64,000 bases of DNA from Escherichia coli (GTDB taxonomy: Bacteria > Pseudomonadota > Gammaproteobacteria > Enterobacterales > Enterobacteriaceae), in the NCBI RefSeq assembly GCF_003991155.1, contig NZ_CP031293.1. One strand, written 5' to 3'. The stretch's first letter is position 1, and each line of letters opens with the position of its first letter. Below the pieces are notes generated by a model. It was not told the DNA's origin and did no database searches. It was given only the letters and a program-made list of their open reading frames with translations. Below are positions 13,530 through 23,891 of this stretch, piece after piece. The position numbers and the translations under genes are program-made.

Positions 13530-14813
13530 ATGGCTGATACAAAAGCAAAACTCACCCTCAACGGGGACACAGCTGTTGAACTGGATGTGCTGAAAGGCAC
13601 GCTGGGTCAAGATGTTATTGATATCCGTACTCTCGGTTCAAAAGGTGTGTTCACCTTTGACCCAGGCTTCACTTCAACCGCATCCTGCGAATCTAAAATT
13701 ACTTTTATTGATGGTGATGAAGGTATTTTGCTGCACCGCGGTTTCCCGATCGATCAGCTGGCGACCGATTCTAACTACCTGGAAGTTTGTTACATCCTGC
13801 TGAATGGTGAAAAACCAACTCAGGAACAGTATGACGAATTTAAAACTACGGTGACCCGTCATACCATGATCCACGAGCAGATTACCCGTCTGTTCCATGC
13901 TTTCCGTCGCGACTCGCATCCAATGGCAGTCATGTGTGGTATTACCGGCGCGCTGGCGGCGTTCTATCACGACTCGCTGGATGTTAACAATCCTCGTCAT
14001 CGTGAAATTGCCGCGTTCCGCCTGCTGTCGAAAATGCCGACCATGGCCGCGATGTGTTACAAGTATTCCATTGGTCAGCCATTCGTTTACCCGCGCAACG
14101 ATCTCTCCTATGCCGGTAACTTCCTGAATATGATGTTCTCCACGCCGTGCGAACCGTATGAAGTTAATCCGATTCTGGAACGTGCTATGGACCGTATTCT
14201 GATCCTGCACGCTGACCATGAACAGAACGCCTCTACCTCCACCGTGCGTACCGCTGGCTCTTCGGGGGCGAACCCGTTTGCCTGTATCGCAGCAGGTATT
14301 GCTTCACTGTGGGGACCTGCGCACGGTGGTGCTAACGAAGCGGCGCTGAAAATGCTGGAAGAAATCAGTTCCGTTAAACACATTCCGGAATTTGTTCGTC
14401 GTGCGAAAGACAAAAATGACTCTTTCCGCCTGATGGGCTTCGGCCACCGCGTGTACAAAAATTACGACCCGCGCGCCACCGTAATGCGTGAAACCTGCCA
14501 TGAAGTTCTGAAAGAGCTGGGCACCAAAGATGACCTGCTGGAAGTGGCTATGGAGCTGGAAAACATCGCGCTGAACGACCCGTACTTTATCGAGAAAAAA
14601 CTGTACCCGAACGTCGATTTCTACTCTGGTATCATCCTGAAAGCGATGGGTATTCCGTCTTCTATGTTCACCGTGATCTTCGCGATGGCGCGTACCGTTG
14701 GCTGGATCGCCCACTGGAGCGAAATGCACAGTGACGGTATGAAGATTGCCCGTCCGCGTCAGCTTTACACCGGCTACGCGCAGCGTGATTTTAAGTCGGA
14801 TATTAAGAAGTAA
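13530..14813 (+). CDS. gltA: Citrate synthase
   Basis: 427-aa [42 protein letters not shown]... Confidence 0.97.
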
Positions 14814-14826
14814 AAATGACACCGAC

Positions 14827-14856
14827 AAAACCCTGCGTGTTCACGCAGGGTTTTTA
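14827..14856 (+). terminator. gltA intrinsic terminator (stem CCCTGCGTG/CACGCAGGG followed by TTTTT); probably bidirectional
   Basis: Hairpin and T-run read from the sequence; an A-run precedes the stem; the dctM stop is 4 nt beyond. Confidence 0.7.
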
Positions 14857-14859
14857 GTT

Positions 14860-16170
14860 CTACACCAACAGCAAAGATATTGCCGGGATATAGGTAATAA
14901 CCAACAGCAGTAAAATAAGACTAACCAGTAGTGGCACCGCTTCTCGCATAAATTGCCCGACAGAAACCTGCACGGTATTACATACCAGCAGCATCACCGT
15001 TCCGACAGGCGGTGATAACGTTCCTAACGATAAGTTGAGGATCATGATGATGCCAAAATGCACCGGATCAATGCCAAAATGAGCCACCACAGGTTTAAGT
15101 AATGGAACTAATATCAGCAGGATGGCACTACCTTCAAGAAACATGCCAAGCACCAGCAGCAATAGATTGATAATCAATAAAAAGACGTATTTATTATCAG
15201 TCAGAGATGTCACAAACTCCGCAACCGTGATACCTGCCCGCTCAAGGGAAAATATCCAGCCCAGCGCGGCACTCGCCATAATGATTAACATGACCGATGC
15301 CGTCGAACGCGCCGTCTCTGAGAGTGCTGTAAATACATGGCTGATTTTCAGTTCGCGATAAATTACAAAACCAATAAACATCACCAATAATACTGCTACG
15401 GCTCCAGCTTCCGTTGGCGTAAAGATATTTGCCCGAATACCACCGATAACCGCAACAATTAAGAACAGTGCTGGCCAGGCCTGCACCAGCGCCACTGACA
15501 CTTCTTTCGGTTTTGGCCAGTGTTCGCTGGAAGGTTTTAAACCGCGCCGAATAGCTACCAGCCATACAGTGACAATCAACATGGCGGAACACAGCAGACC
15601 GGGCAGGATCCCGGCCATAAACATGGAGCCGATGGAGACATCCGCCACCAGTCCGTAAAGGATCAGTGCAATACCCGGTGGAATAATTGGTGTAATCAGC
15701 GAACCACTTGCCGTTATCGCCGCCGCAAAGCCACGGGAATAACCTTTCTGTTCCATTTCCGGCACCATCATGCGCGATAACATCGCAGCATCCGCCAGGT
15801 TTGAGGCGCTAACGCCGCCCATCATGGTACTGACCAGAATATTAGCCCCACCCAGACCACCGCGCATTCTGCCAATCAACACGTTGGCAATTTGCAAAAT
15901 ACGCGCGGCAATACCGGTATAGCTCATTAACGTGCCTAATAAGATAAAAAATGGAATAGCTAACAGCGAAGGGGTTTGCGTCGTGGCAATCAAACGCTGA
16001 ATTGCTACCATTAACGGCACATTTGAATAGCAAAGGAAGTAGGTCAGAATGCCGCAAAACATCGCCAGCCATACCGGCATATTGATAAATAAACAGATGA
16101 ACATAAGCGGAATGATCATTAGCCAGTTATCCAGCCAGCTTCCCGCCAGTAATTCACTCAATGCTGTCAT
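14860..16170 (-). CDS. TRAP transporter large permease (DctM family)
   Basis: 436-aa polytopic membrane ORF; start overlaps the dctQ stop by 1 nt. Confidence 0.85.
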   Translation of the reverse strand: MTALSELLAGSWLDNWLMIIPLMFICLFINMPVWLAMFCGILTYFLCYSNVPLMVAIQRLIATTQTPSLLAIPFFILLGTLMSYTGIAARILQIANVLIGRMRGGLGGANILVSTMMGGVSASNLADAAMLSRMMVPEMEQKGYSRGFAAAITASGSLITPIIPPGIALILYGLVADVSIGSMFMAGILPGLLCSAMLIVTVWLVAIRRGLKPSSEHWPKPKEVSVALVQAWPALFLIVAVIGGIRANIFTPTEAGAVAVLLVMFIGFVIYRELKISHVFTALSETARSTASVMLIIMASAALGWIFSLERAGITVAEFVTSLTDNKYVFLLIINLLLLVLGMFLEGSAILLILVPLLKPVVAHFGIDPVHFGIIMILNLSLGTLSPPVGTVMLLVCNTVQVSVGQFMREAVPLLVSLILLLLVITYIPAISLLLV

Positions 16171-16631
16171 TATTCACCTTCCTTGCGTGGCGTTTTCTTG
16201 ATCAGGTGTAAGGCAGTAAAACAGGCGATACCGATTGCACCAACCGTGACCGCAATATCGATCCAAAACCAGGATATTTTTAATATTTGCGTGGTTTTAA
16301 ATGCTGTTCCGGCAGCTAATTTCCATGCTGACCAAGCCATCACACTCAGTAAAACAATAGATATCAGAGAGACAAATAACGTTAAAACACGTTGCACGCG
16401 TGGTGTCAGTGCATCAGCTAAAAATGGAATCGACAAATGGGTATTATCCCGCTCGGCAACGACCGCACCAAACATGACTACCCAAATCATTAATAAACCG
16501 GAAACCTCTTCTGTCCACTGTAATGGCATATGAAAACAGTAACGCATTATTACCGCAGCAATGGTCATGATTACCAATATAAAGAGCGTTAATACCGCAG
16601 CAACTTCAATCATTTTCCCTAAAAGACGCAT
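16170..16631 (-). CDS. TRAP transporter small permease (DctQ family)
   Basis: About 153 aa with 4 predicted TM segments; start chosen at the ATG (MRLLGKMIEV...) with AGAGG RBS rather than the upstream GTG. Confidence 0.8.
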   Translation of the reverse strand: MRLLGKMIEVAAVLTLFILVIMTIAAVIMRYCFHMPLQWTEEVSGLLMIWVVMFGAVVAERDNTHLSIPFLADALTPRVQRVLTLFVSLISIVLLSVMAWSAWKLAAGTAFKTTQILKISWFWIDIAVTVGAIGIACFTALHLIKKTPRKEGE

Positions 16632-16650
16632 AAACACCTCTGCTCTTAAC

Positions 16651-16672
16651 GGTCGGTGCCGAAACACCGACC
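16651..16672 (-). other. Intercistronic hairpin between the TRAP binding-protein and permease genes (GGTCGGTG..CACCGACC)
   Basis: 8-bp perfect inverted repeat with 6-nt loop, read from the sequence. Confidence 0.4.
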
Positions 16673-16690
16673 AGTCCTTATGCCATGAAG

Positions 16691-17659
16691 TTATTTCAGC
16701 TGTTGCTGAATAGTGTCATACAAACCAGGGGTCCATTCCGGGAATTGTTGATAGACTTTTAAGGCTTTTTCTTTGAAAGGGGCGACGTCAGGATAGATAA
16801 TTTCCACGCCCTGCTCCTGCATGGTTTTCAACATTGTCGCATCCTGCTCAGTGGTAATTTTCTGGCTATATAAACCAGCTTCATACGCTGTCTGGTGAAT
16901 AATATCTAACTGCGCAGGTGTCAGGGTACTGAAAAACGCTTCACCACCCAACCATAATGATGTATTGGTCAGATAGTTCACCATTGACAGATATTTCGCC
17001 TGCTCATGCAGTTTTTGCCCATACAGAACAGAAACCGGGTTTTCCACACCATCGATCATCCCCTGCGTCAGCGCCGGATAAACGTCTCCCAGCGGCATTG
17101 GCGTTGGGGTTGCGCCCATTGCTTCAATGGCTTTAATCTGCATAACGTTATTCGGCACGCGGATCTTCATCCCTTTCAGGTCTTCAGGTGTACGAATCGG
17201 TTTTTTAGCAATGATCTGCCTGGTACCGTACAGATAGTTGCTCATGACAATATGCACACCTTTTTCCCGTAGTTTCTGTTCTTTTTGTTTAAACCAGTCA
17301 CTGGCATAAATCGCAAACAGTTTCTGCGGATCTTCGGTTAAATAAGGCCCAAACAATATTCCCAGGTCTGCATCGTAGTCAGTTAAAAATCCCACATCAC
17401 TGATGGTGATAATATTCATCCCCATCAACGCTTGTTCAGTAATATCTTGTTTAGAACCTAACTGTGAACTTGGGTAAAGTTCGAAAACAATATCTCCATT
17501 GCTTTTTTTCTTCACAAGTTCTGCCCAGTGCTTCACTACTGTATCCGCTGGCTCGCCGGGGTTACTTTCATAGGCGATTTTGATAGTTACCGGTGCGGCA
17601 TTCAGCATCGGACTAAATAAAGCGAAAAGAAATAAAAGTGGTGTCAGTAATTTTTTCAT
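16691..17659 (-). CDS. TRAP transporter periplasmic solute-binding protein (DctP family)
   Basis: 322 aa; signal peptide MKKLLTPLLFLFALFSPMLNA; conserved KIRVP region typical of carboxylate-binding DctP proteins. Confidence 0.85.
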   Translation of the reverse strand: MKKLLTPLLFLFALFSPMLNAAPVTIKIAYESNPGEPADTVVKHWAELVKKKSNGDIVFELYPSSQLGSKQDITEQALMGMNIITISDVGFLTDYDADLGILFGPYLTEDPQKLFAIYASDWFKQKEQKLREKGVHIVMSNYLYGTRQIIAKKPIRTPEDLKGMKIRVPNNVMQIKAIEAMGATPTPMPLGDVYPALTQGMIDGVENPVSVLYGQKLHEQAKYLSMVNYLTNTSLWLGGEAFFSTLTPAQLDIIHQTAYEAGLYSQKITTEQDATMLKTMQEQGVEIIYPDVAPFKEKALKVYQQFPEWTPGLYDTIQQQLK

Positions 17660-17686
17660 TATTATTACCTGTAAGAGCTTTATCGA

Positions 17687-18883
17687 TTAACGGGGATCTG
17701 CCCGACAGACTGCACTTTTGCTGTAATCAAATGCTTTATACGTTAAAACAAACTCCTGATGTTCCAGTCGTTCTGCGGCACAATATTGACCGTTGGCGAC
17801 ATGTTCAATCACCTGCATAATATCGTCTGCAATATCGTCGAGCGTTGCGCCTTCGCTAATTACACGACCGGCATTAACGTCCATATCGTCAGATAAATGC
17901 TCCCACGTCTGCGGGTTATTACACACTTTAATAATAGGAGCGATCACTGAACCAATAACTGAACCGCGACCTGTGGTAAATAACACCATATGACAGCCAG
18001 AGGCGATAAGTTCCAGTGCTTCTGAGGAATCGTTAATATTCGGATACCCAAAACGAGGTTCACCATCAGGCACCACGTCCATCAACCAAAGCCCAGGAAA
18101 GGGCGTTTGTTGCGTCGGCAAAATAACGCCAGCAATCAGCGCATCGCCCGACTTGGTATAAGCCCCAAGGGATTTTTCTTCCTGAGTGGTTAAGCCGCCT
18201 TCAGCATTACCATTAGAAAAACTCCCCAGCCCCATCAAACTGTAATAACGTTCGGCTTTTGCCATTGCCACTTCGATGGCATCACGTGCCTGCGAACTAG
18301 CCGCGCGCGACATCATATGCTGCTCACAACCAAGCAACTCACCGCTTTCTTCAAAAATACAGGTAGCCCCTTTCTCCAGCAGTTGGTCAAAGGCACGTCC
18401 TACTGCCGGGTTACCCGTGATACCACTGGTGCCATCGGAGCCACCGCAGATAGTACCAACCACCAGGTCGCTCCAGTTCAGGATACAACGCGGTGTATCC
18501 GCAAGCTGTTCCAGCATTTCAGCGACCAACTGCTTACCCAGAGTAATGGTGTTGGTCGTGCCTTTATTTTCCTGAATGACCAGCGTATGGCACGGTCGCC
18601 CACTTTCTCGTACTTCTTGCTCCAGCCGACGGCGATCAAAATTCTCGCACCCCAGCGAAATAATCAGTACACCACCTACGTTGCTATGAATCGCCAGATT
18701 TTTTACCAGACGATAGCCATAATCGCTGGGATAACAACCTGAAAAACCAAAATACTGCACGTCGTGACAAGGAAATCCTTCGGCAATCTTTTTAGCGACA
18801 TGGCTGGCACACTCCACCATAAAGATTACCTGCACAGTATTACGAATACCCGGTCGACCATTTTGCCGTACATAACCTTCCAT
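17687..18883 (-). CDS. UxaA-family (altronate/galactarate dehydratase-like) large subunit
   Basis: 398-aa ORF MEGYVRQNGRPGIRNTVQVIFMVECASHV... resembling the C-terminal catalytic part of UxaA/GarD; start overlaps the small-subunit stop (TAATG). Confidence 0.8.
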   Translation of the reverse strand: MEGYVRQNGRPGIRNTVQVIFMVECASHVAKKIAEGFPCHDVQYFGFSGCYPSDYGYRLVKNLAIHSNVGGVLIISLGCENFDRRRLEQEVRESGRPCHTLVIQENKGTTNTITLGKQLVAEMLEQLADTPRCILNWSDLVVGTICGGSDGTSGITGNPAVGRAFDQLLEKGATCIFEESGELLGCEQHMMSRAASSQARDAIEVAMAKAERYYSLMGLGSFSNGNAEGGLTTQEEKSLGAYTKSGDALIAGVILPTQQTPFPGLWLMDVVPDGEPRFGYPNINDSSEALELIASGCHMVLFTTGRGSVIGSVIAPIIKVCNNPQTWEHLSDDMDVNAGRVISEGATLDDIADDIMQVIEHVANGQYCAAERLEHQEFVLTYKAFDYSKSAVCRADPR

Positions 18884-19194
18884 TATGCTTTTTCCTCTGG
18901 CTGATAGCCGGCATCATCATGATGAAAAATGGCGATGGCATTGCTGGCAAGATTATGGGAATGCACATGTTCACCCATGGCAATATCGCGAGTGGCGTGT
19001 CCGATAATGGCGCCGTATTTCAGAATCGAATCACCATTGTTCAGCGCTTCGCAGGCCAGTTTGTGACCCAGGGTAACGGAACTACAGGCCACCATTTCCC
19101 CCTCATCCCACCAGACAATATCGCCACTGGCGATGTCATTCAGCGCGACTACACAGTTATCTTTGGCATGTAGCTTTAACGCACGTTTGCGCAT
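18883..19194 (-). CDS. SAF-domain small subunit of the split UxaA-type dehydratase
   Basis: About 103 aa from MRKRALKLHAKDNCVVALNDIASGDIV... with GGAGG RBS; corresponds to the N-terminal domain of single-chain UxaA. Confidence 0.7.
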   Translation of the reverse strand: MRKRALKLHAKDNCVVALNDIASGDIVWWDEGEMVACSSVTLGHKLACEALNNGDSILKYGAIIGHATRDIAMGEHVHSHNLASNAIAIFHHDDAGYQPEEKA

Positions 19195-19208
19195 AATTCC
19201 TCCGTACA

Positions 19209-19964
19209 TCAGAAGCCGATCAATGCGCCGCCATCCACCACCAGCACCTGACCACTGACAAATGCCGCTGCGTCTGAAGCCAGATAAACCGCAGCCCAAC
19301 CGATATCTTCCGGCTTGCCGAATTTTTTCATCGGTGTCCGCCCCAGGATTTTGTTACGGCGTTCGTCATCACCTTCAATGGCCTTACGCAACATTGGTGT
19401 ATCGATCCAGCCTGGCGCAATACCGTTGACGCGAATCCCATGAACGGCAAGCTCCGTGGTCATACCGCGAATCATGCCGAGATAGGCTGACTTCGCTGCG
19501 CTGTAGCCAGTAACCAGAGGCTGCCCAAGAAATGAGGTCATCGATGCAGTAAAAAGCACACAGCCTTGACCGCGTTGTTTCATATGCGGCACCAGCGCTT
19601 TGGTTAACGCAAATGCGCCGACTACGTGAACGTCGAGTACTGACTCAAAATCACTGACGCTCATCTCTTCAATCGGTTTTTTGCAGTGATTGCCTGCGTT
19701 ATTGACCAGGATATCGATAGCCCCGTGTTCGCTAATAAGCGCATCAACTTTTTCCTGCGCGGCTGCGGTATCCCCGACATCCATTTGTATCCAACTGGCC
19801 TGCGACCCCAATGTTCCGGCGGTCGCTTGCGCCAGCTCGCCGTTCAGGTCAGCAATAATGACCTTCGCCCCGCTGACTATCATGCATTTCGCCATTGCCA
19901 GCCCCAGCCCACTGGCTGCACCGGTGATCAACGCGGTTTTGTTATGTAAAGAAAAAGCATTCAT
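19209..19964 (-). CDS. Short-chain dehydrogenase/reductase (KduD/IdnO-like)
   Basis: 251 aa; TGAASGLG nucleotide-binding motif, IDILVNNAG, YSAAK catalytic motif; AAGGAG RBS. Confidence 0.85.
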   Translation of the reverse strand: MNAFSLHNKTALITGAASGLGLAMAKCMIVSGAKVIIADLNGELAQATAGTLGSQASWIQMDVGDTAAAQEKVDALISEHGAIDILVNNAGNHCKKPIEEMSVSDFESVLDVHVVGAFALTKALVPHMKQRGQGCVLFTASMTSFLGQPLVTGYSAAKSAYLGMIRGMTTELAVHGIRVNGIAPGWIDTPMLRKAIEGDDERRNKILGRTPMKKFGKPEDIGWAAVYLASDAAAFVSGQVLVVDGGALIGF

Positions 19965-19975
19965 GGTGTCGCTCC

Positions 19976-20989
19976 TTAAAGGTCAATGAGGATTTTGGTA
20001 TACGCGCCGGGATCACTTGCCCAGTCGCTAAAAGCATGATCAGCCTGTTCCAGCGGGTAGTGAGCACTCACCAGATTGCTGACCGGATAACGCCCGGACT
20101 CCATCAATGCCAGCACGGCACGAAAATCCGCCACGGTGGCATTGCGCGAACCACGGATATCCAGTTCTTTCATCAGGAACTGCGCACTCTGATAACTCAC
20201 TGGCTGTTTGGCGTAACCGACATAAACCACACGACCGCTAAACGCCACCAACCCTGTAGCCTGTTCAATGGTTTGTTGATTACCCACCGCTTCAATCACC
20301 ACTTCCGGGCCGCGACCGTCATTTAACAGCACCAGTTCTGCCGCCACGTCACATTGCTGCGAATTAAGAAAACGTTGCGCACCGCATTCCAGGGCAATGT
20401 TCTGCTTGCGATCATCAATATCGATAGCAATTACGCGCGCCCCCATGGCGGATGCCGCGGCGATAGCGCCAAGGCCAATTACCCCACAACCGATAACTGC
20501 GACCCATTCACCCACATTAATTTGCGCACGTCTGGCCGCATGTAGTCCCACGGCCAGCGGTTCTACCAGCGCTAACTCATCAACACTTAAGGCATTACAG
20601 ACAATGACTTTATGTGCAGGCATCGTCAGTTGTTGCGCCATCCCCCCCTGACGTTGCACACCAAGAGTTTGGTTGTTTTTACAGGCGTTAGGACGACCGC
20701 TCAGACAGGAGCTGCACACGCCACACTCAGTGCAAGGCAGAACGACCACCCGGTCACCTGGCTTGATCGCCCCTGCCATATCGCCAGTTGCCAGCACCGT
20801 GCCGCCAATTTCATGCCCCGGAATACAGGGATAATTAACCAGCGGATTCAGTCCCCGCCATGTATTGAGGTCAGAACCACACAGTCCGACACGCTCAACA
20901 TTGATTAGCACTTCTCCTTTACCGCAGACAGGTTCGGGGATATCAACAAATCGCGCCTGACTTCCCTGCTCAATGGTTAATGCCTTCAT
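19976..20989 (-). CDS. Zinc-dependent medium-chain dehydrogenase (IdnD / sorbitol dehydrogenase-like)
   Basis: 337 aa; GLCGSDL, GHEIGG, structural-zinc Cys cluster CTECGVCSSC, GCGVIGLG NAD fold; AAGGAGA RBS. Confidence 0.85.
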   Translation of the reverse strand: MKALTIEQGSQARFVDIPEPVCGKGEVLINVERVGLCGSDLNTWRGLNPLVNYPCIPGHEIGGTVLATGDMAGAIKPGDRVVVLPCTECGVCSSCLSGRPNACKNNQTLGVQRQGGMAQQLTMPAHKVIVCNALSVDELALVEPLAVGLHAARRAQINVGEWVAVIGCGVIGLGAIAAASAMGARVIAIDIDDRKQNIALECGAQRFLNSQQCDVAAELVLLNDGRGPEVVIEAVGNQQTIEQATGLVAFSGRVVYVGYAKQPVSYQSAQFLMKELDIRGSRNATVADFRAVLALMESGRYPVSNLVSAHYPLEQADHAFSDWASDPGAYTKILIDL

Positions 20990-21001
20990 TCATTGCTCTC
21001 C

Positions 21002-21688
21002 TTACATTACGCCGAAGGTTTCAAAGGCCTGTACCGTGCTCATGCCATCACTGATGGCTTTGCGCACTTCACTTTCAGTTGCCACTTTTTCCAGGGCCTG
21101 GGTAATAACTTCTTTCTCAACAACCTGGGGAATAATCAGTAATCCATCACGATCACCAAACACGATATCGCCCGGATTCACCCGCACGCCGTGAAATTCA
21201 ATAGGTACGCCGAAGTCGATGACCTTGCCGCGCGGACCTTGATCTTGTGCGTAAGTGCCATGACAAAAGGTGGGAAATTTCAATTCAAGAATTTCAGCAG
21301 AGTCACGGGCGTAACCATCGAGTACCGCACCTGCTGCTTTCAGATGCATGGCACGGGTAGACATCAACCCGCCCCACAAGGCATAGCGCAGAGAGCTGCC
21401 CGTAGTGATGTAAACATCGTTCTCTTTGAGGGCATCCAGCGCTTCAAACATGATGCCAAACGGTTTTTCGCCAATCGCCGTCTTACCCGACGTCGATTTG
21501 GTTTCGTAAACGTCCGACTCCAGCACCGGCATTGCCCGGCCTGCCACCACCGTATTCACATCCAGCGGCTTGATTGCCGGAGAAACAAACTGGTGCATAT
21601 AGCCCAGCGTGTCGAGAATATCGCCAACCACGGCGGTAAATAGCCGGGTTTTCATCAAAGCAAAAAGTTCGTTATCACTCTTCCACAT
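21002..21688 (-). CDS. RraA-like protein, putative class II 4-hydroxy-2-oxoacid aldolase
   Basis: About 228 aa from MWKSDNELFALMKTRLFTAVVGDILD... (RraA/MenG-like fold family); first gene of the operon. Confidence 0.75.
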   Translation of the reverse strand: MWKSDNELFALMKTRLFTAVVGDILDTLGYMHQFVSPAIKPLDVNTVVAGRAMPVLESDVYETKSTSGKTAIGEKPFGIMFEALDALKENDVYITTGSSLRYALWGGLMSTRAMHLKAAGAVLDGYARDSAEILELKFPTFCHGTYAQDQGPRGKVIDFGVPIEFHGVRVNPGDIVFGDRDGLLIIPQVVEKEVITQALEKVATESEVRKAISDGMSTVQAFETFGVM

Positions 21689-21694
21689 TATTTT

Positions 21695-21728
21695 CACCCT
21701 GTAAGCCTGTTTAACAGGTTTACAGGGT
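21695..21728. promoter_or_regulatory. Nested perfect palindrome (ACCCTGTAA-G-CCTGTT-T-AACAGG-T-TTACAGGGT) at the 5' end of the operon; candidate operator or RBS-occluding RNA hairpin
   Basis: Read from the sequence; lies 7 nt upstream of the RraA-like start codon and overlaps its Shine-Dalgarno region. Confidence 0.35.
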
Positions 21729-21951
21729 AAGGAGAAAAAGCGCACAATACTGCGAAGGGCGTCACGAAAAAGTTGTGTATTTACTATTTCTTCGCCACTC
21801 TTTCACACAATATGTCTTTGATTCGCACTGCATGGCGGGCGCACAGGCGCAGTAGTCTATTGATAATCAAGGGTTCTGGAGGAAAATATGAAGGATACAG
21901 TCCCGGTATTCTGGATTTTACCGACCAGGAAAAAGTACAACAGGAGTAAAA

Positions 21952-22665
21952 ATGAGTGAGAGTGCGTTATTGACCAGCGTAACGTTATCGTCACAGGTCA
22001 AAAATCATATTCTTAATCTGATCGCCGAACAAAAATTGACACCGGGGATGCCAGTTCCCAGTGAAATTCAGTTGATTCAGAAATTGGGCGTCAGTCGGGG
22101 TATTGTGCGTGAGGCCTATCGTTCACTTGCCGCCCTGGGGATTCTGGAAACGCACAGCGGTAAAGTGCCACGGATCAAAAAATTTGATGATGAAGTGCTG
22201 CGCGTGGTGTTTGGATTTGCCCTGGCGACCGAACAAGTAACAACAGAGCAAATTCTTCAAGTACGTCGCTGGCTAGAGTTGGGCGTTGTGGAAGCTGCTG
22301 CCCGTAATGGCGGAGAAGAAGATTTTGCTAACCTACGGGCTGAAATGGCAAAAATCCGCGAACAGTTCGATGATGTCGAAAGCTTTATCACCCATGACAT
22401 CCGCTTCCATCAGTTACTCGCCGTTGCCTCAAAAAATCCGCTTTTTATGATGTTATTGCAGGCATTACATCAGCAATTGCGGCAATCCATCCAGGAGGGA
22501 TTAAACGCCCAAAGCGATCAGAAAGAGTATGGCAATCACATCATCACACTACACCAGAAAATCTGCGACGCTGTGTGTGCCAGAGATGTCGAAACGGCGA
22601 CTCAAGCCATGAAATCACACTTCGACAGCCCGGTCAGTGCACTGATCAATAATTCCTCGCCATAA
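21952..22665 (+). CDS. GntR-family transcriptional regulator (FadR-type C-terminal domain)
   Basis: 237 aa; N-terminal winged HTH (EIQLIQKLGVSRGIVREAYRSL) followed by an all-helical domain; divergent from the catabolic operon. Confidence 0.85.
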   Translation: MSESALLTSVTLSSQVKNHILNLIAEQKLTPGMPVPSEIQLIQKLGVSRGIVREAYRSLAALGILETHSGKVPRIKKFDDEVLRVVFGFALATEQVTTEQILQVRRWLELGVVEAAARNGGEEDFANLRAEMAKIREQFDDVESFITHDIRFHQLLAVASKNPLFMMLLQALHQQLRQSIQEGLNAQSDQKEYGNHIITLHQKICDAVCARDVETATQAMKSHFDSPVSALINNSSP

Positions 22666-22844
22666 GACTTATTTCAGTTCAATCGTTTACTCTTCCCTCT
22701 TTTACAAATGAGAGGGAGACAACGGTACTTAATACGCCCTTTAGCCAAAATCTGTCTTTTTCTTGATTACCGCTATTTTTTCGTTGAGGCGCATTCTTTA
22801 TGCTGTATCGATACACCAAAGGTAAGTTAAACAGGGAGTGACGG

Positions 22845-23891
22845 ATGCCAGTTTTGCAGTGGGGAATGTTATGTGTTCTGTCACTTCTCCTTTCTATTGG
22901 CTTCCTCGCTTTACATCTCCCGGCGGCACTCCTGCTTGGCCCGATGCTCGCCGGGATCATCTTCAGTATGCGCGGGGTTACCCTGCAACTCCCCCGCTCC
23001 GCTTTTCTCGCCGCGCAGGCCATTCTTGGCTGCATGATTGCGCAAAACCTGACCGGTTCGATCCTGACCACGCTAGCGGTGAACTGGCCGATAGTGTTAG
23101 CCATTTTACTGGTGACGCTGCTTTCCAGCGCCATCGTGGATTGGTTATTGGTGCGCTATAGCTCACTGCCTGGAAATACCGGTGCCTGGGGTTCTTCTCC
23201 TGGCGGCGCGGCGGCAATGGTCGCTATGGCGCAAGATTACGGCGCAGATATTCGCCTGGTGGCGTTTATGCAATATCTGCGAGTGCTGTTCGTCGCGGGG
23301 GCCGCTGTTCTGGTCACCCGCATGATGCTGGGCGATAACGCTGAAGCGGTTAACCAGCAGATCGTCTGGTTCCCGCCAGTGAGCATTAATCTCCTGCTTA
23401 CGATTTTGCTCGCGGTCGTTGCCGGTACGGCGGGATGCTTGCTACGTCTTCCTTCCGGCACGATGCTCATCCCGATGCTGGGGGGCGCAGTGCTCCAGTC
23501 TGGTCAGCTCATCACGATTGAACTCCCGGAATGGCTGCTGGCGATGGCATATATGGCAATTGGCTGGCGGATTGGTCTTGGTTTCGATAAGCAAATATTA
23601 CTGCGGGCATTGCGCCCACTGCCACAAATCCTGCTGTCGATTTTTGCTCTGCTGGCTATTTGTGCGGGTATGGCGTGGGGACTGACCCGGTTTATGCATA
23701 TTGATTTTATGACTGCCTACCTCGCCACCAGTCCCGGCGGGCTTGATACCGTGGCGGTCATCGCCGCAGGGAGCAATGCCGATATGGCGCTCATTATGGC
23801 GATGCAAACCCTGCGCCTGTTCAGTATTTTGCTGACGGGACCTGCCATTGCGCGGTTTATTTCAACCTATGCGCCGAAACGTACGGCCTAG
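22845..23891 (+). CDS. abrB: AbrB-family membrane protein (putative regulator/transporter)
   Basis: 348-aa polytopic [27 protein letters not shown]...; conserved position next to nei. Confidence 0.85.

Follow-up and report, generated by a model that had tools for sequence, protein, structure and literature searches.

A stem-loop between a FadR/GntR-family regulator gene and abrB of Escherichia coli: a candidate 3'-end element of the regulator transcript lying away from the segment breakpoints

The inverted repeat TCCCTCT/AGAGGGA between the FadR/GntR-family regulator gene and abrB is best explained as the 3'-end stem-loop of the regulator transcript, which may act as an exonuclease barrier or as a weak pause site or terminator; we give this reading about an even chance. 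It is favored because the hairpin lies on the sense strand after the stop codon, folds more stably as sense RNA and has no U-tract, with a mild excess of C over G in the sequence downstream, as reported for the 3' ends of Rho-dependent E. coli transcripts after exonuclease trimming, which carry stem-loops without a U-tract and a C-over-G bias downstream (PMC6061677). The hairpin itself is real and moderately better than chance, and it is not exceptional. The window (the whole stretch of DNA analysed, 64 kb) is 100% identical to the chromosome of E. coli 2016C-3878, and its relevant features are collected in Table 1.

Table 1. Features of the gltA-abrB interval and of the regulator-abrB junction (window coordinates).
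Feature	Coordinates	Strand	Remarks
gltA	13530-14813	+	
Bidirectional terminator, left end of the variable segment	14827-14856		AAAA-CCCTGCGTG-TTC-CACGCAGGG-TTTTT, between convergent gltA and dctM
Seven-gene catabolic cassette	14860-21688	-	TRAP transporter dctMQP, two UxaA-family subunits, SDR, Zn-dependent alcohol dehydrogenase, RraA-family protein
FadR/GntR-family regulator	21952-22665	+	237 aa; PF00392 and PF07729; divergent from the cassette; hairpin in its 3' flank
Junction segment	22666-22755	none	90 bp, found only in the regulator-abrB arrangement
Extended imperfect hairpin	22682-22726	+	16 pairs, interrupted by a bulged U and an internal loop (RNAfold)
Core hairpin	22694-22717	+	7-bp stem, spacer 22701-22710
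abrB upstream block	22756-22844	+	Conserved in all arrangements of the locus (K-12 type, E. albertii, divergent lineage); presumably the regulatory region of abrB itself
abrB	22845-23891	+	348 aa; PF05145
nei	after abrB	-	

A 7-bp stem without a U-run after the regulator stop codon had been predicted originally, and both the sequence and a script run on it confirm this stem: the arms (22694-22700 and 22711-22717) are exact reverse complements separated by 10 nt, and five of the seven pairs are G-C. In the RNAfold structure, an additional U22701-G22710 pair closes the spacer to an 8-nt loop (22702-22709), and the core folds with -13.4 kcal/mol. The extended hairpin reaches -18.2 kcal/mol on the plus strand (z = -4.1; none of 200 dinucleotide shuffles folds as well), compared with -13.3 kcal/mol (z = -2.6) on the minus strand, and the RNA of the plus strand is the more stable because of G-U pairs. 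The regulator stop codon occupies 22663-22665, and the hairpin, which is contained in the 179-nt intergenic region, starts 17-29 nt past it on the regulator sense strand (29 nt for the core). The distance from the end of the core hairpin to the abrB start codon is 128 nt.

On neither strand does a T-run come after the stem; the next 15 nt (tail GACAACGGTACTTAA) contain only 3 T, and a consensus scan that detects other terminators in the region finds none on either strand of 22666-22844. A promoter scan reveals no promoter in the regulator-abrB intergenic region, and on inspection by eye, the TTTACA of the loop lacks a usable -10 partner. The C/G ratio over the 80 nt after the stem is approximately 1.5; it is 1.4-1.6 in 78-nt windows that begin at 22720-22740 and falls below 1 from 22760 on, and the bias is mild and not specific.

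Several controls place the hairpin within the range of what this DNA commonly contains. A perfect 7-bp inverted repeat with a loop of 3-12 nt arises in 8.8% of the dinucleotide shuffles of the intergenic region, and 99 such repeats are present in the window, in which the specific pattern TCCCTCT-N6-14-AGAGGGA occurs once. Among all 51-nt windows of the 64 kb, a folding energy of -18.2 kcal/mol belongs to the best 4.4%, and a 51-nt fold that is equal or better lies within 110 nt of the stop codon for 18 of the 34 annotated genes in the window. The intergenic region as a whole (179 nt, z = -1.08) is not unusually structured. A scan of 21600-23000 against Rfam 15 (E up to 10) yields no family match near its gathering score; the only match that touches the region, to the eukaryotic snoRNA model sn2991, scores 17.4 bits (E = 6.7), where the gathering score is 60.

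Comparison with known kinds of 3' structures shows where the hairpin fits best. In terms of the features taken from PMC6061677 for protective stem-loops of Rho-dependent transcripts, the hairpin is a stable stem-loop soon after a stop codon, with neither a U-rich tract after it nor an A-tract before it and with a mild C-over-G bias; the resemblance is one of sequence features. Intrinsic terminators share with the hairpin a G+C-containing stem-loop directly 3' of a gene and a folding energy in the usual range. However, at least about 5 U among the 8 nt right after the stem are expected of an intrinsic terminator, which the hairpin does not have, and its loop of 8-10 nt is at or above the usual upper limit. 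The hairpin that follows ybgO in K-12-type genomes, GCCCTTT-N8-AAAGGGC, is the closest counterpart in position and geometry: it lies just past the stop codon of the gene that precedes abrB, its core stem has 7 bp and its loop has 8 nt, and both hairpins are located 35-45 nt upstream of the conserved abrB block. The two differ in that their sequences are unrelated (neither anchored nor local alignments are significant) and the K-12 tail is somewhat richer in T.

The 3' flanks of the same regulator in other lineages provide a further comparison. The sequence past the regulator stop codon is unrelated there to that of the window, yet a stable hairpin follows. In E. albertii, an 11-bp stem lies 11 nt past the stop codon (z = -5.0); in the lineage represented by locus L013, a hairpin past the stop codon (z = -3.3) is accompanied by a perfect 16-bp stem. 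The latter is situated in the regulator-ybgD spacer (L013 10798-10836, AUUAUUUCUCUCUCCC ... GGAGAGAGAAAUAAU), folds with -22 kcal/mol (z = -6.4) and has no U-run. By analogy, the hairpins of E. albertii, the L013 lineage and K-12 ybgO may be regarded as independent support for a 3' stem-loop in the regulator transcript.

If the hairpin is such a stem-loop, transcription of the regulator would run past the stop codon and, with no U-tract after the hairpin, would terminate there poorly by the intrinsic route, if at all. Transcripts would end further downstream, probably by the action of Rho in the untranslated, mildly C-over-G stretch, or would read into abrB. Exonucleases acting in the 3'-to-5' direction would then trim the RNA back to the stem-loop, and this barrier would fix a stable 3' end. 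A role as a weak terminator, which the original prediction also entertained, is plausible. The hairpin would belong to the regulator's own 3' flank and would have been retained when ybgDQPO was lost, with the end of the deletion approximately 35-40 bp downstream.

The breakpoints of the variable segment were located by comparison with other genomes. A query with the junction has a full-length match in 660 of the 5,426 complete E. coli genomes (12%), which are exactly the carriers of the regulator; in nearly all remaining genomes, the matching part begins only at query position 357-359, which corresponds to 22756-22758 of the window. In pairwise and multiple alignments and in anchored extension with shuffles, homology with K-12-type genomes begins at ~22756, 39 bp past the stem. 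With genomes in which the cassette and ybgDQPO occur together (E. albertii and the divergent Escherichia lineage, loci L007 and L013-L016), homology ends at the stop codon, 22665, which is 29 bp before the stem. The original statement that the region adjoining abrB is a boundary of a variable segment is thus borne out by the homology breaks at 22665/22666 and ~22756. The same prediction had also raised the possibility that the island edge is marked by the hairpin as a recombination scar, and had suggested alignment with genomes that lack the island as a check. That alignment places a breakpoint at ~22756 and not at the hairpin; the other break, at 22665/22666, comes from the genomes with both segments. 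Because the breakpoints map elsewhere, the edge-marker reading fails on the prediction's own terms; in addition, the segment is single-copy, and no end repeats of at least 8 bp, integrase or tRNA accompany it. For the mapping of island borders here, 22665/22666 and ~22756 should be used rather than the hairpin.

The 90 bp between these breaks are present at one place in each of the 660 genomes and in none of the other 4,766, and all 660 join the regulator directly to abrB through them. E. whittamii and several draft or metagenome contigs are further carriers. In metagenomes, the plain hairpin pattern is found in five contigs, all with identical left and right context, and the pattern scan reveals no hairpin with another right-hand context. 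The segment has no match in plasmids, and its two phage matches of ~20 nt, to unrelated phages (E 0.2-0.8), are at chance level.

A search for the source of the 90 bp by blastn-short against all fetched loci, and by global, local and anchored alignments with shuffles, does not identify one. The comparison covered the ybgO-abrB, regulator-ybgD and gltA-ybgD spacers of K-12, AHB3, EC12, the L013 lineage and E. albertii. It yields no more than two 9-mers, TTTACTCTT (shared with L013) and ACGCCCTTT (shared with EC12), whose diagonals are inconsistent, and the best local alignment to the ybg spacers has a z-score of 3.5 before correction for the number of comparisons. A tblastn search of the junction with the Ybg proteins (261-nt database) gives no coding similarity below E = 0.03. 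Positions 22734-22746 were considered as a remnant of the ybgO hairpin arm, and this assignment was dropped. Between E. albertii and the L013 lineage, the ybg spacers are likewise unalignable, so the missing similarity of the 90 bp carries little weight; the flanks of ybg evolve fast, and the same result would therefore be expected if the 90 bp were the regulator's native 3' flank.

Sequence variation in the junction is limited. Five variable sites are observed in the 90-bp segment (22673, 22703, 22709, 22724 and 22755), of which none is in the core stem and two are in the 8-nt loop, and no compensatory change is observed. In one E. coli genome (strain 22872), the variant G22724A removes one base pair from the outer helix, which indicates that only the core stem is well supported. 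The lack of covariation and the nonsignificant pattern of the polymorphisms are explained by the near-invariance of the junction across all known carriers. A scan of genome contigs for more diverged copies that could reveal covariation returns Escherichia only. Relatives of the regulator with 88-97% identity (P0003-P0006) are frameshifted or truncated copies with the same junction, and the next one, from Entomohabitans, is 68% identical and has its stop codon 3 nt from the convergent sbcB.

Two further palindromes lie near the junction. The first gene of the minus-strand cassette, which encodes the RraA-family protein, is preceded by a near-perfect palindrome with 16-nt arms (ACCCTGTAAGCCTGTT A AACAGGTTTACAGGGT, 21696-21728) located 8 nt upstream of its start. 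The core of this palindrome, CCTGTTTAACAGG, is invariant in E. albertii, divergent Escherichia and Entomohabitans, in spite of the 68% identity of the regulator in the latter, and the palindrome is a good candidate for an operator of the FadR/GntR regulator or, alternatively, for a 5'-UTR element. A perfect 12-bp palindrome, TGTATCGATACA (22804-22815), lies within the upstream block of abrB; K-12-type E. coli and the L013 lineage have it without change, E. albertii differs in its left half, and it is a possible regulator site for abrB.

The reading as a 3' stem-loop has to be weighed against a chance inverted repeat that has no function and lies in a short, nearly neutral junction sequence, which we regard as a serious rival, though a less probable one. 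The frequency of 7-bp repeats in the shuffles and in the window agrees with it, as do the rank of the fold among the 51-nt windows, the equal or better folds near the stop codons of half of the genes, the unremarkable z-score of the whole intergenic region, the absence of covariation and of an Rfam match, and the natural variant G22724A. However, the local fold is better than that of every shuffle (z = -4.1), its site right after the stop codon and the bias of stability toward the sense strand fit a function, and two other lineages also have hairpins after this gene, in 3' flanks of unrelated sequence. It is improbable that the hairpin works as a Rho-independent terminator and insulates abrB from transcription of the regulator: the stem-loop, with its high share of G-C pairs, is suitably placed just past the stop codon and upstream of abrB's conserved block, but so few T follow the stem, and the consensus scan is negative here and positive elsewhere in the region. 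The terminator at the other end of the cassette, by comparison, is canonical, with an A-run, a 9-bp GC-rich stem and TTTTT. The least probable of the readings is that the repeat is a DNA site for a dimeric regulator, either the neighboring FadR/GntR protein or one that controls abrB. The perfect 7-bp arms, their 10-bp spacing and their place between a regulator gene and the promoter region that comes next would suit such a site. Nevertheless, the divergent promoter region of the cassette (21689-21951) does not contain the arms, and the palindrome at 21696-21728 there, conserved even in Entomohabitans, is a much better candidate; all genomes in which abrB comes after ybgO lack the segment with the hairpin and still conserve the upstream block of abrB; and the greater stability on the plus strand points to RNA rather than DNA.

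The remaining alternatives concern the origin of the segment. The 90 bp could be, wholly or in part, a recombination scar, that is, filler from the deletion of ybgDQPO (arising, for instance, when a template switch copies neighboring sequence in inverted orientation) or the remnant of a mobile-element end, and we consider this unlikely. In favor of it, homology breaks off on both sides of the segment, searches of the ybg operon and its flanks in K-12, the L013 lineage and E. albertii detect no source, and the regulator-abrB junction is the only place where the segment is observed. Against this, the hairpin is at neither break, the ends of the cassette (14760-14900 compared with 22640-22800) have no common k-mer of at least 8 nt in either orientation, no integrase or tRNA is present in the annotation of the identical strain, and the single-copy state, the lack of plasmid matches and the chance-level phage matches give no sign of a repeated element or an IS end; the rapid evolution of the ybg flanks also makes the missing similarity expected for a native 3' flank. 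A combined scenario, in which the 90 bp are filler from the ybgDQPO deletion and the inverted repeat is a footprint of template switching that was later kept for a stable transcript end or for the shielding of abrB, is very unlikely; in a less far-reaching variant, the stem-loop would end a small 3'-UTR-derived RNA. With island boundaries (att sites, direct repeats) and repeated elements such as REP/BIME, ERIC and MITEs, the hairpin shares a position close to the end of a segment that some E. coli have and others lack. It differs from them in being single-copy, in the absence of end repeats, of an integrase and of a tRNA, and in its distance of 29 and 39 bp from the breakpoints. A repeated extragenic element (REP/BIME, ERIC or MITE) was rejected for the hairpin: the segment is single-copy in each genome, and the arm pattern occurs once in the window.

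The arrangement of genes in related genomes changes the interpretation of the locus. In K-12 and AHB3, the fimbrial operon ybgDQPO precedes abrB, and a remnant of it does so in EC12; in the 660 E. coli genomes with the regulator, the 90-bp junction leaves no room for ybgDQPO between the regulator and abrB. Both segments are present in E. albertii and divergent Escherichia, in the order gltA, cassette, regulator, ybgDQPO, abrB (loci L009-L016), and in these lineages the cassette is positioned as in the window, and the gltA 3' end and terminator beside it are those of the window. Because these lineages have the cassette there and keep ybgDQPO, the junction is better read as the site of ybgDQPO loss. 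Of the original description of an island, the variable segment stands, and the island status is doubtful in view of this shared position; the "island" looks like an old Escherichia segment. The G+C content of the cassette (43-54%) is close to that of its surroundings, and a literature search did not find the cassette as a named island. Ybg fimbriae have been described as core-associated, often disrupted and mostly absent in uropathogenic strains (PMC3559732). From the comparison within Escherichia, the simplest reading is that the ancestor had both segments, that most E. coli lost the cassette and that this lineage lost ybgDQPO.

The flanks of the interval also differ from K-12. The last 48 bp of gltA and the terminator (14766-14856) match E. 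albertii and the L013 lineage instead, and the left homology break with K-12-type genomes is consequently inside the gltA coding sequence. On the other side, the first ~400 bp of abrB have 86-90% identity to K-12, and identity is at least 97% in most 100-bp windows from ~24300 on, with scattered dips to 94-96% beyond. Divergence that extends into abrB is typical of an old structural polymorphism. The abrB alleles of E. coli fall into several identity classes, which suggests an old polymorphism linked to the structural difference.

Other states of the locus and of the cassette are observed. In EC12 (L005 8543-8938), only a 3' fragment of ybgO is left between gltA and abrB, a fourth state of the locus, in which most of the fimbrial operon was deleted independently. 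In E. coli ET245 (L020 6287-6983), an IS1 separates ybgO from abrB; it is inserted within the conserved block upstream of abrB, and the alignment of this genome with the window starts only at ~22791. In Entomohabitans teleogrylli and a related contig (L018 and L019), the cassette and regulator are found in the same order elsewhere in the genome, adjoining the exonuclease I gene sbcB, and the regulator and sbcB have convergent stop codons 3 nt apart. The occurrence at another genomic place indicates that the module is portable between genera. Additionally, the abrB product, labeled "AbrB family transcriptional regulator", is very hydrophobic and resembles a polytopic membrane protein, which makes the label "regulator" doubtful.

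The hairpin itself matters little, since gene-end stem-loops of this kind are common and this one is simply unannotated, and the lasting value of the analysis lies in the locus map and the breakpoints. In the corrected map, the gltA-abrB interval has two segments, the TRAP/sugar-acid-like cassette with its regulator and the Ybg operon; E. coli lineages keep either the cassette or ybgDQPO, and E. albertii and the divergent lineage have both.
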